From Escherichia phage EF202P1: a stretch of DNA of 64,000 nt. The position numbers and the translations under genes are program-made. The stretch lies in sequence record OP172796.1. One strand, 5' to 3'. Positions within the stretch are counted from its first letter, which is position 1; each line of letters starts with the position of its first letter. Shown here piece by piece: positions 21,326 to 21,719 of this stretch. The notes beneath the pieces are model-generated. The model was not told the DNA's origin, made no database searches, and saw only the letters and a list, made by a program, of their open reading frames with translations.

Positions 21326-21355
21326 ACTTTAGTTGATTGTTAAGTTGTTTGTAAA
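21326..21355 (-). promoter_or_regulatory. candidate minus-strand promoter TTTACA-18-TAAAGT for cassette gene
   Basis: Same hexamers as class-A cassettes; very short 5' UTR makes this uncertain. Confidence 0.3.
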
Positions 21356-21359
21356 GAAC

Positions 21360-21697
21360 CCTCAACAGAAGACTCTTTAGAAACTTGGTAGATTTTTAAT
21401 GTGGCTACTACCATCCACCCATACCATGCCACACCACACCGGACCTTACCTAACCCGACCTTACCATACCTGACCTAACCCTACCATACATTATTAAAAG
21501 ACCCTGTTTAAAGACCTTTTAAAAAGGTAAGTCTCATTTTTATGTAGCTGAGACTAACTACCCACACCAAACCATAGCATACATCGCATTACCGGACAGA
21601 ACCATACTTTACCAAACATCACTTAAAAACCCTCTTAGAAGACTCTTAAGTGATGCTGGTGAGTACCCGTTGGTTTATGCTGCTCAGTATACTCACC
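21360..21697. repeat. second copy of the same intergenic unit family (two to three units)
   Basis: Same boxes and hairpins as 19866..20268, ending in GGTGAGTA/TACTCACC stem. Confidence 0.6.
21521..21563 (-). terminator. minus-strand hairpin with T-run downstream of ligase
   Basis: Same AGTCTC/GAGACT hairpin unit as at 19971..20013. Confidence 0.45.
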
Positions 21698-21719
21698 AAA
21701 TTTTCTATGTCAACAACTT

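Follow-up and report, generated by a model that had tools for sequence, protein, structure and literature searches.

The subject of this analysis is the intergenic segment 21326-21719 in a 64,000-nt stretch of Escherichia phage EF202P1 (record OP172796.1; hereafter the window), which a preliminary description had presented as the second copy of a structured repeat family on one side of a two-gene cassette. We assign positions 19789-21713 (minus strand) of this Felix O1-like phage to a VIPR (Viral Interference Programmable Repeat) locus of type II, with a probability of roughly 93%, the segment 21326-21719 being its upstream guide-RNA array. The kind of system is already known, so that this is a re-discovery of the published VIPR and not a new kind. 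The anatomy of the sequence, the identity of the proteins, the covariation in the RNA tails, the pattern of variability and the matches to targets were established in the present analysis.

VIPR has been described as consisting of a minimal RAMP-like protein of ~20 kDa, Vipr, an accessory protein, Vap, and guide RNAs of ~100 nt, the vrRNAs (10.64898/2026.04.26.720920, 10.64898/2026.04.26.720927). According to both preprints, a vrRNA comprises 9-16 YNNGG repeats, in which GGY is conserved and NN is hypervariable, and ends in an invariant pseudoknotted 3' tail. Vipr forms a filament on it, in which each protomer takes up one repeat, buries its GGY and presents its NN. The NN dinucleotides pair with double-stranded DNA while one target base is skipped per repeat (NNx), and the outcome is the silencing of transcription; the natural targets of guides of the SUSP1 clade are mostly in a satellite phage of E. 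coli (10.64898/2026.04.26.720920, 10.64898/2026.04.26.720927). For phage SUSP1, small RNA sequencing (sRNA-seq), pull-down, and GFP, lambda cro and cI assays showed the vrRNAs as ~100-nt RNAs that co-purify with Vipr and silence (10.64898/2026.04.26.720920), and mutation of NN with GGY kept changed the target specificity (bioRxiv preprint on SUSP1).

All genes near 21326-21719 lie on the minus strand. Read in this direction, the locus runs from a promoter-like site, P1, through two vrRNA genes, vipr and vap1 to three further vrRNA genes. We have defined as region B the sequence between the ligase gene and vipr (21311/21326-21719) and as region A the one distal of vap1 (19751-20279). The core components are:

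21530..21620, minus strand: vrRNA B1, 11-12 NN-GGY pentamers (21564-21620) and a 34-nt tail of the AGTCTC/GAGACT type (21530-21563)
21387..21492, minus strand: vrRNA B2, 14-15 NN-GGY pentamers (21421-21492) and a tail of the GGTAG/CTACC type (21387-21420)
20723..21310, minus strand: vipr, a 195-amino-acid RAMP-like protein that, by homology to SUSP1 Vipr, would polymerise on vrRNA GGY motifs
20280..20720, minus strand: vap1, a VIPR accessory protein of 146 amino acids
20127..20217, minus strand: vrRNA A1, 11-12 pentamers and a tail of the TAATCG/CGATTA type, preceded by a box I hairpin (20219-20247)
19980..20090, minus strand: vrRNA A2, the longest guide, 15-16 pentamers (tract 20014-20090) and a tail of the AGTCTC/GAGACT type, preceded by a box II hairpin (20087-20125)
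19843..19943, minus strand: vrRNA A3, 13-14 pentamers and a tail of the GGCAG/CTGCC type, preceded by a box I hairpin (19945-19972)

Searched against PDB with phmmer, the 195-residue protein matched 36pp_D, 'SUSP1 Vipr protein', over residues 1-195 (E=8.5e-129), and 192 of its 195 residues are identical to SUSP1 Vipr (98%). Position 21310 (ATG), already chosen as the gene boundary in the preliminary description, is the right start, as it matches residues 1-195 of the solved protein. In the alignment, the residues that contact GGY (H17, E71, M72, R138, C173, D177, W178 and R179; list from 10.64898/2026.04.26.720927) are all present at the same positions; T175 of that list is V175 in both EF202P1 Vipr and the SUSP1 translation made here. 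Regarding vap1, its product shares 145 of 146 residues (99%) with that of the gene after vipr in SUSP1, where vap1 strengthens VIPR protection and Vap1 is a predicted DNA-binding protein (bioRxiv preprint on SUSP1). Pfam and PADLOC gave no useful match for either protein of the cassette, and PHROGs returned only families of 'unknown function'. Both are hypothetical proteins in every GenBank record listed.

The vrRNAs of the window span ~90-110 nt each, with 11-16 NN-GGY pentamers followed by a conserved 34-nt pseudoknot, and all five tracts agree with the published definition of a vrRNA in number of repeats (11-16), conserved GGY and hypervariable NN. The module shared by regions A and B consists, on the minus strand, of an A-U/G·U-rich hairpin, a single-stranded pentamer tract and the 34-nt element with the AGTCTC/GAGACT stem. 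For comparison, both intergenic regions were taken from 8 annotated relatives and, in IMG/VR, from 24 contigs (82-94 kb, Felixounavirus-like). Among 974 pentamers from 85 unique tracts of the window and its relatives, positions 1 and 2 were near-random, position 3 was G in 78%, T in 14%, A in 8% and C in 0%, position 4 was G in 96%, and position 5 was T in 88% and C in 11%; one register was held by 86% of the pentamers, compared with 27% in shuffles. Tracts ranged from 8 to 18 pentamers across the family (9-16 in the preprint), and their lengths between fixed anchors differed by multiples of 5. In phages that are otherwise ~92% identical, the tracts could not be aligned except for G-G-T at each fifth position, while the hairpins and the 34-nt elements were conserved. 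Local tandem duplications of 5 or 10 nt suggest slippage as one source of new guide sequence.

A scan of the window for DGY triplets (D = G/T/A, Y = T/C) gave five blocks that hold 7-8 of 8 of them in a single 5-nt register, always on the minus strand and only within regions A and B. In the window and in the complete 88.5-kb genome of a relative, such tracts are confined to the VIPR locus and always on the coding strand. The B2 tract is the most regular block and the source of the sequence quoted in the preliminary description. Parts of guide tracts carry the label 'repeat_region' in some GenBank records, such as those of phages dune (L001 2208-2259) and Andreotti (L003 2334-2370), e.g. as runs of GGTCT/GGTAG.

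The tails fit a two-helix pseudoknot in which columns 3-8 pair with 15-20 and columns 9-14 with 29-34. Over 19 distinct tails, 93% of the cells were paired, compared with 29-39% when the partners were slid, and compensatory changes on both sides were present in 9 of the 12 pairs of the pseudoknot (e.g. GUAG/CUAC, GUGG/CCAC and AAGG/CCUU).

The A/T boxes, AGTCTC/GAGACT hairpin and G-poor, C/A-rich blocks that had been described on the plus strand of region B are all in place, each with a counterpart in 19751-20279:

21494-21522 and 21617-21655: A/T boxes (counterparts 19945-19972, 20219-20247 and 20087-20125)
21530-21563: AGTCTC/GAGACT hairpin (counterpart 19980-20013)
21421-21492 and 21564-21620: G-poor, C/A-rich periodic blocks (counterparts 19877-19943, 20014-20090 and 20161-20217)

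The two regions are significantly similar: blastn aligned 292 nt of 21311-21719 with 19751-20279 at 74% identity (E=3e-45, 165 bits), while shuffles of region B (n=100) gave a mean best score of 19.5 bits and a maximum of 30.1 bits. With MAFFT, region B paired with the distal ~370 nt of region A, boxes and hairpins being nearly identical. The suspected periodicity is real, goes far beyond chance and has a period of 5 nt, with ACC..ACC..ACC..ACC occurring 8 times in the 64-kb window, all inside 21433-21468. We could also confirm that both regions bracket 20280-21310 and that one repeat family, functionally tied to the cassette, stands on both sides of it. What had to be revised is the nature of the repeats: the 'G-depleted C/A-rich blocks' are in fact the antisense view of (NN-GGY)n guide tracts, and the AGTCTC/GAGACT hairpin is one stem of the vrRNA 3' pseudoknot (10.64898/2026.04.26.720920, 10.64898/2026.04.26.720927).

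We then turn to the targets. The NN list of each guide was scanned over six chromosomal satellite loci under skip rules 0-3, using 300 permuted guides as control, and the results for B1 and B2 were extended by IMG/VR pattern scans (L051, L046 and L072-L076 being IMG/VR contigs homologous to the chromosomal satellite). Under the published 1-nt-skip rule, four of the five guides matched the satellite:

guide A3: 24/28 NN, 10 consecutive dinucleotides perfect, the match following the reading frame of a satellite hypothetical gene (L039 6324-6710, also L042 and L043), whose codon wobble bases are the ones skipped; permuted guides 0/300
guide A1: 21/24 NN with a perfect run of 9 dinucleotides, located 29-64 nt upstream of the small recombinase gene in L038; permuted guides 0/300
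guide B2: 23/30 NN, located in the baseplate gene of the satellite (L040, L041), permuted guides 0/300; 10 consecutive NN perfect in the IMG/VR variants L072-L076
guide B1: 24/24 NN in L051, 23/24 in L046 and 19/24 in L038, in frame in a gene for 236 amino acids; permuted guides 14/300 (for 19/24)
guide A2: 21/32 NN (background), no target; permuted guides 76/300

The 24/24 value of B1 comes from an 18-base exact pattern scan of IMG/VR (26 hits), extended over the remaining 6 bases; the NNx target predicted for this guide reads GAxTTxAAxATxTCxCCxAAxGAxATxATxTTxGT. Skip rules 0, 2 and 3 gave only background for the guides of the window. Across the family, at least 80% of the NN positions matched in 61 of 87 guides with a skip of 1, versus 17 with the best of skips 0, 2 and 3. 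No self-target was found in the window, where the best self-scores (17-20) equal background, and a periodic-GGY scan of the six satellite loci detected no vrRNA-like tract. One of them, the satellite of E. coli 15A at 869-880 kb of NZ_CP077477.1, has ~2 kb without an annotated gene (L038 7167-9177) adjoining the small recombinase gene that A1 matches upstream; this part, too, showed no vrRNA-like tract in the periodic-GGY scan.

The satellite matched by the vrRNAs is a chromosomal island of ~11 kb, a parasitic element of E. coli. The island carries recombinases, a Dam-like methylase, an HNH gene, a tape-measure gene and a baseplate gene, is present in 474 of 5426 complete E. coli genomes and is inserted at yciI/tonB, ymdF/wrbA or yecN. 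Within the phage's own baseplate-type gene, which follows the tape-measure gene (open reading frame 6176-6973), the stretch 6197-6740 has 92-95% DNA identity to a gene of this island. The target of B2 lies ~30 nt past the 3' end of the shared baseplate stretch (gene offset 595, the stretch ending near offset 565), a placement that may let the phage tell its own baseplate gene from that of the satellite.

Four of the five guides match an integrated satellite whose baseplate gene is a close relative of that of the phage, and it is most likely this E. coli parasite that the locus silences during infection. If EF202P1 follows the published mechanism, transcription from P1, the presumed driver, would run across the two vrRNA genes and then vipr and vap1. 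Vipr protomers would polymerise along each vrRNA, one per pentamer, burying GGY and exposing NN. The NN dinucleotides, whose hypervariable bases would be the specificity code, would pair with double-stranded DNA in the gapped register NN-x-NN-x, and the bound filament would repress transcription, so that the satellite would be silenced in the course of infection.

Besides the vrRNA genes, the locus contains promoter-like sites and a set of hairpins:

21686..21713, minus strand: P1, a sigma-70-type promoter-like site (TTGACA-16 nt-TATACT, 11/12 matches), directly after the ligase stop codon
21617..21655, minus strand: box II hairpin, a ~18-bp A-U/G·U-rich stem-loop directly 5' of vrRNA B1, which would space the guide from the transcription start (RNAfold)
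21494..21522, minus strand: box I hairpin, with a UAAAC loop on a 12-bp stem that includes G·U pairs, between vrRNA B1 and B2 (RNAfold; repeat families D1-D3)
21347..21384, minus strand: box III hairpin, separating vrRNA B2 from the vipr ribosome-binding site, conserved in relatives (RNAfold)
20246..20268, minus strand: intrinsic-terminator-like hairpin, AGCCTCTTCGGAGGCT followed by a T-run, after vap1 (hairpin 20268-20253)
19789..19842, minus strand: 19-bp A/U-rich hairpin and T-run at the end of the locus, with the TTGACA of P2 in its loop (z = -4.1)
-35 in the loop of the 19789..19842 hairpin, minus strand: P2, a promoter-like site for 19367-19750 (TTGACA-17-TATTTT, 10/12)

In region B, P1 is followed by two modules, then by a third hairpin and finally by the ribosome-binding site for the 195-residue gene; region A opens with the terminator-like hairpin, continues with three modules and closes with the long A/U hairpin that holds the -35 of P2 in its loop. 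P1, which we infer to drive the upstream vrRNA array and vipr-vap1, is conserved in all the relatives examined, including those without the cassette. An inverted repeat, GGTGAGTA...TACTCACC (21658-21697, minus strand), overlaps its -10 hexamer as well as the initial ~25 nt of the presumed transcript, is likewise kept in all relatives, cassette-less ones included, and may be an operator or a leader hairpin. Some relatives have an extra small hydrophobic open reading frame of ~147 nt between ligase and P1 (L003 3497-3650, L005 2486-2640, L036 2821-2967, L037 and L008 3046-3192), and SUSP1 has a different insert of ~180 nt there; EF202P1 has no insert (21714-21719), its promoter standing right after the ligase stop.

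The inter-vrRNA hairpins come in three variants with stems of 12-19 bp. Several of their pairs are G·U, so they can fold only on the minus strand, and most of what differs in them among relatives lies in the apical loop. One copy of the box II hairpin has a loop insertion of ~28 nt in phages Moogle (L005) and CL1 (L007). Because the hairpins are placed exactly where the ~100-nt mature vrRNA must begin, we regard them as putative processing or spacer signals and as candidates for defining the 5' ends of the vrRNAs. Searches of the available text of the two VIPR preprints found no mention of them.

Of the 'private regulatory and terminator elements' proposed in the preliminary description, the sigma-70-like promoter in region B and the terminator-like hairpin after vap1 stand, while the repeated modules turned out to be vrRNA genes. 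One could argue that the modules themselves are cis-regulatory DNA or untranslated-region elements (promoters, operators, terminators) that control the cassette and yield no RNA product of their own. The near-consensus promoter in region B, the terminator-like hairpin that opens region A and the TAAAAT-like hexamers in the hairpin loops would fit such a role, but we consider it very unlikely. The loop hexamers have no acceptable -35; the modules occur nowhere else in the window or in the 88.5-kb relative genome, so they are not general phage promoters or terminators; and they are retained in relatives that lack the cassette. Such a role would moreover leave unexplained the strict NN-GGY code with free NN, the covariation in the pseudoknot and the matches to targets. 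More specific candidates of this sort were also rejected. The hairpin loops (CTACATTAAAAT) as -10 elements of a promoter array have no usable -35, their motif is absent from the rest of the window, and a scan gave only P1, P2 and weak sites; as to hairpins plus T-runs as intrinsic terminators, the T-run follows only one tail type and the loops have 12-16 nt; and Rho utilisation sites on the antisense, C-rich strand would explain neither why the A of ACC is conserved nor why the 5-nt register is exact.

Another explanation, to which we give even less credit, is that the tracts are a multi-site protein-binding RNA of a different kind, namely an attenuator leader like that of TRAP or a sponge like CsrB, with GGU triplets every 5 nt that would sequester some other RNA-binding protein forming rings or filaments. 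In the Bacillus trp leader, TRAP sites consist of ~11 (G/U)AG triplets with non-conserved spacers of 2-3 nt, each triplet being bound by one subunit of an oligomeric protein (an 11-mer ring), and the leader overlaps an antiterminator/terminator pair. The hairpin-flanked tracts, with 10-17 triplets and 2-nt free spacers, resemble such sites. Here, however, the triplet is GGY, A occupies its last position in <1%, and no alternative terminator/antiterminator pairing was evident in the folds. The adjacent gene encodes Vipr, for which the structures show one protomer per GGY-NN repeat, and a pure sponge would predict no match of the free NN to a competing element under the 1-nt-skip rule, nor the altered target specificity of the SUSP1 mutants with changed NN and intact GGY (bioRxiv preprint).

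The least credible alternative is an element acting as DNA, i.e. a replication origin or R-loop zone with a G-rich non-template strand behind a strong promoter, a centromere-like array of short iterons or a recombination hot spot: it would suit a unique locus inside a replication-gene operon with extreme strand asymmetry (G 42% and C 9% in the tracts) and two regions flanking a two-gene cassette, as par sites do, but the hairpins depend on G·U pairs and thus form only on the transcribed strand, the tail pseudoknot shows compensatory changes, R-loop and iteron models need neither a pyrimidine at position 5 nor free NN, and the satellite matches are not predicted. R-loops or origins, iterons, primase arrays, G-quadruplexes, boxA-like antitermination and pairing with the ACC 3' end of tRNA were all dropped, given that none fits free NN together with strict GGY and that they became unnecessary once Vipr had been identified.

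Several points weigh against the assignment of the locus to VIPR. The expression of EF202P1 vrRNAs, their binding by Vipr and their silencing activity are carried over, by analogy, from preprints, not peer-reviewed, on the 98-99%-identical system of SUSP1, a close relative. Some pentamers are degenerate (TGT, AGT, GCT), and the terminator-like hairpin between vap1 and the downstream array complicates the transcription of that array. Among the guides, B1 is borderline in the six chromosomal satellites (19/24; 14/300 permuted), its perfect match being that of the IMG/VR pattern scan. The best match of B2 reaches 77%, below the 80% cut-off of the preprint, and its skipped base is not at the wobble position. 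For guide A2, neither the six chromosomal satellites nor the window nor IMG/VR gave a target, and its 18-base pattern hits in IMG/VR extend no further than chance.

The loss of the cassette by recombination, suspected in the preliminary description, has a natural example. Felix O1, the classical typing and biocontrol phage, as well as EC6, UAB_Phi87, JLBYU28 and four IMG/VR genomes have neither vipr nor vap1. They present a single intergenic region from ligase to gp87, with 178-336 nt between P1 and P2 and 1-2 vrRNAs:

L004 2323-2604 (Felix O1, record 57632-57913), L035, L036, L037, L012, L016, L023 and L031: cassette-less loci with orphan vrRNAs

This fused region combines the promoter end of region B with the distal end of region A, and its junction looks like what would be left if a region-B module had recombined with the last module of region A. 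A tblastn search of the whole Felix O1 genome gave no Vipr or Vap1 match (best E = 0.36), and the same genome has one periodic tract (57822-57792). The orphan guides are not decayed, with GGY in 72% (75% in Vipr-linked guides) and DGY in 95% (97%). At a threshold of at least 85% of NN positions, 7 of 13 orphan guides matched the satellite, compared with 1 of 13 in the controls. Vipr (at least 90% identical) is present in ~117 Ounavirinae records, versus 230 phage records that match region B. We consider it possible, if rather doubtful, that the orphan vrRNAs are functional, whether with a Vipr that a co-infecting relative, a satellite or a prophage would provide in trans, as decoys titrating the Vipr of a competitor, or with an unrecognised and highly divergent RAMP protein; alternatively, they would be scars of recent deletions. 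Searches of the available text of the VIPR preprints found no mention of orphan vrRNAs in Vipr-less phages.

The window belongs to the genus Felixounavirus: by megablast, 19300-22300 matched 258 phage records at 91-95% identity, all of them Felix O1-like myoviruses of the Ounavirinae. The gene neighbours within the locus are only ligase, vipr, vap1 and small hypothetical genes, and the surroundings include:

21720-22856, minus strand: ATP-dependent DNA ligase
19367-19750, minus strand: open reading frame for 127 amino acids, the next gene beyond region A, with the promoter-like site P2
18861-19190, minus strand: helix-turn-helix regulator

The surrounding genes form part of the early operon that extends from DNA polymerase through thymidylate synthase (Felix O1 genes 96-80; PMC3185647). 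In the window, no Rfam match reached the gathering score and no tRNA was found; vrRNAs are absent from Rfam 15. Literature searches on repeats, transcriptome and origin in Felixounavirus gave nothing relevant, and the 2010 genome paper on Felix O1 gives other repeats and not the present one.

The VIPR assignment accounts for an otherwise baffling intergenic repeat through a newly described mode of RNA-guided DNA recognition that, according to one proposal, predates CRISPR. Two genes annotated as 'hypothetical' in >100 Felix O1-like phage genomes can now be named, and concrete E. coli satellite targets are predicted for the guides of EF202P1. As to what remains of value beyond the published system, we would point to the orphan vrRNAs of Vipr-less phages, the natural variants that lost the cassette and the inter-vrRNA hairpins as possible processing marks.

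To contextualize the locus, we compared it with three known systems. With the binding sites of TRAP it shares conserved triplets with short spacers and one protein subunit per triplet; unlike them, VIPR has GGY as its triplet, a helical RAMP filament and its information in the spacers. As in the Class 1 CRISPR-Cas effectors, an RRM/RAMP-fold protein polymerises on a guide RNA (there as Cas7-family RAMP filaments) with periodic base flipping, a variable guide is capped by a conserved handle, and recognition of competing genetic elements is programmable. In contrast to those effectors, VIPR has no repeat-spacer array, no cas1/cas2 adaptation genes, no nuclease and no protospacer-adjacent motif; its guide is discontinuous, 2 nt being read per 5 with the target in register NNx, and it is encoded by a phage and silences rather than cleaves. 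The locus itself shows modular units of ~130-150 nt with 5-nt tracts instead of the near-identical repeats of ~24-48 nt in direct orientation, the similarly long unique spacers between them and the nearby cas1/cas2 that define a CRISPR array. The closest likeness is to the type II VIPR of SUSP1 (PDB 36pp), with 98% identity in Vipr and 99% in Vap1, the gene order vrRNA(s)-vipr-vap1-vrRNA array, YNNGG/GGY-NN repeats, the types of pseudoknot tail, the promoter and the inter-vrRNA hairpins; in both phages, the E. coli satellites that the guides match with a skip of 1 nt are of one class. Our reading of the SUSP1 locus (L006) yielded one upstream and three downstream tracts with a 12-repeat upstream guide, in agreement with the publication and its sRNA-seq. 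EF202P1 differs in its genus (Felixounavirus, SUSP1 being a Suspvirus), in its number of vrRNAs (2+3 versus 1+3) and in its guide (NN) sequences, all of which are differences of membership and not of kind.

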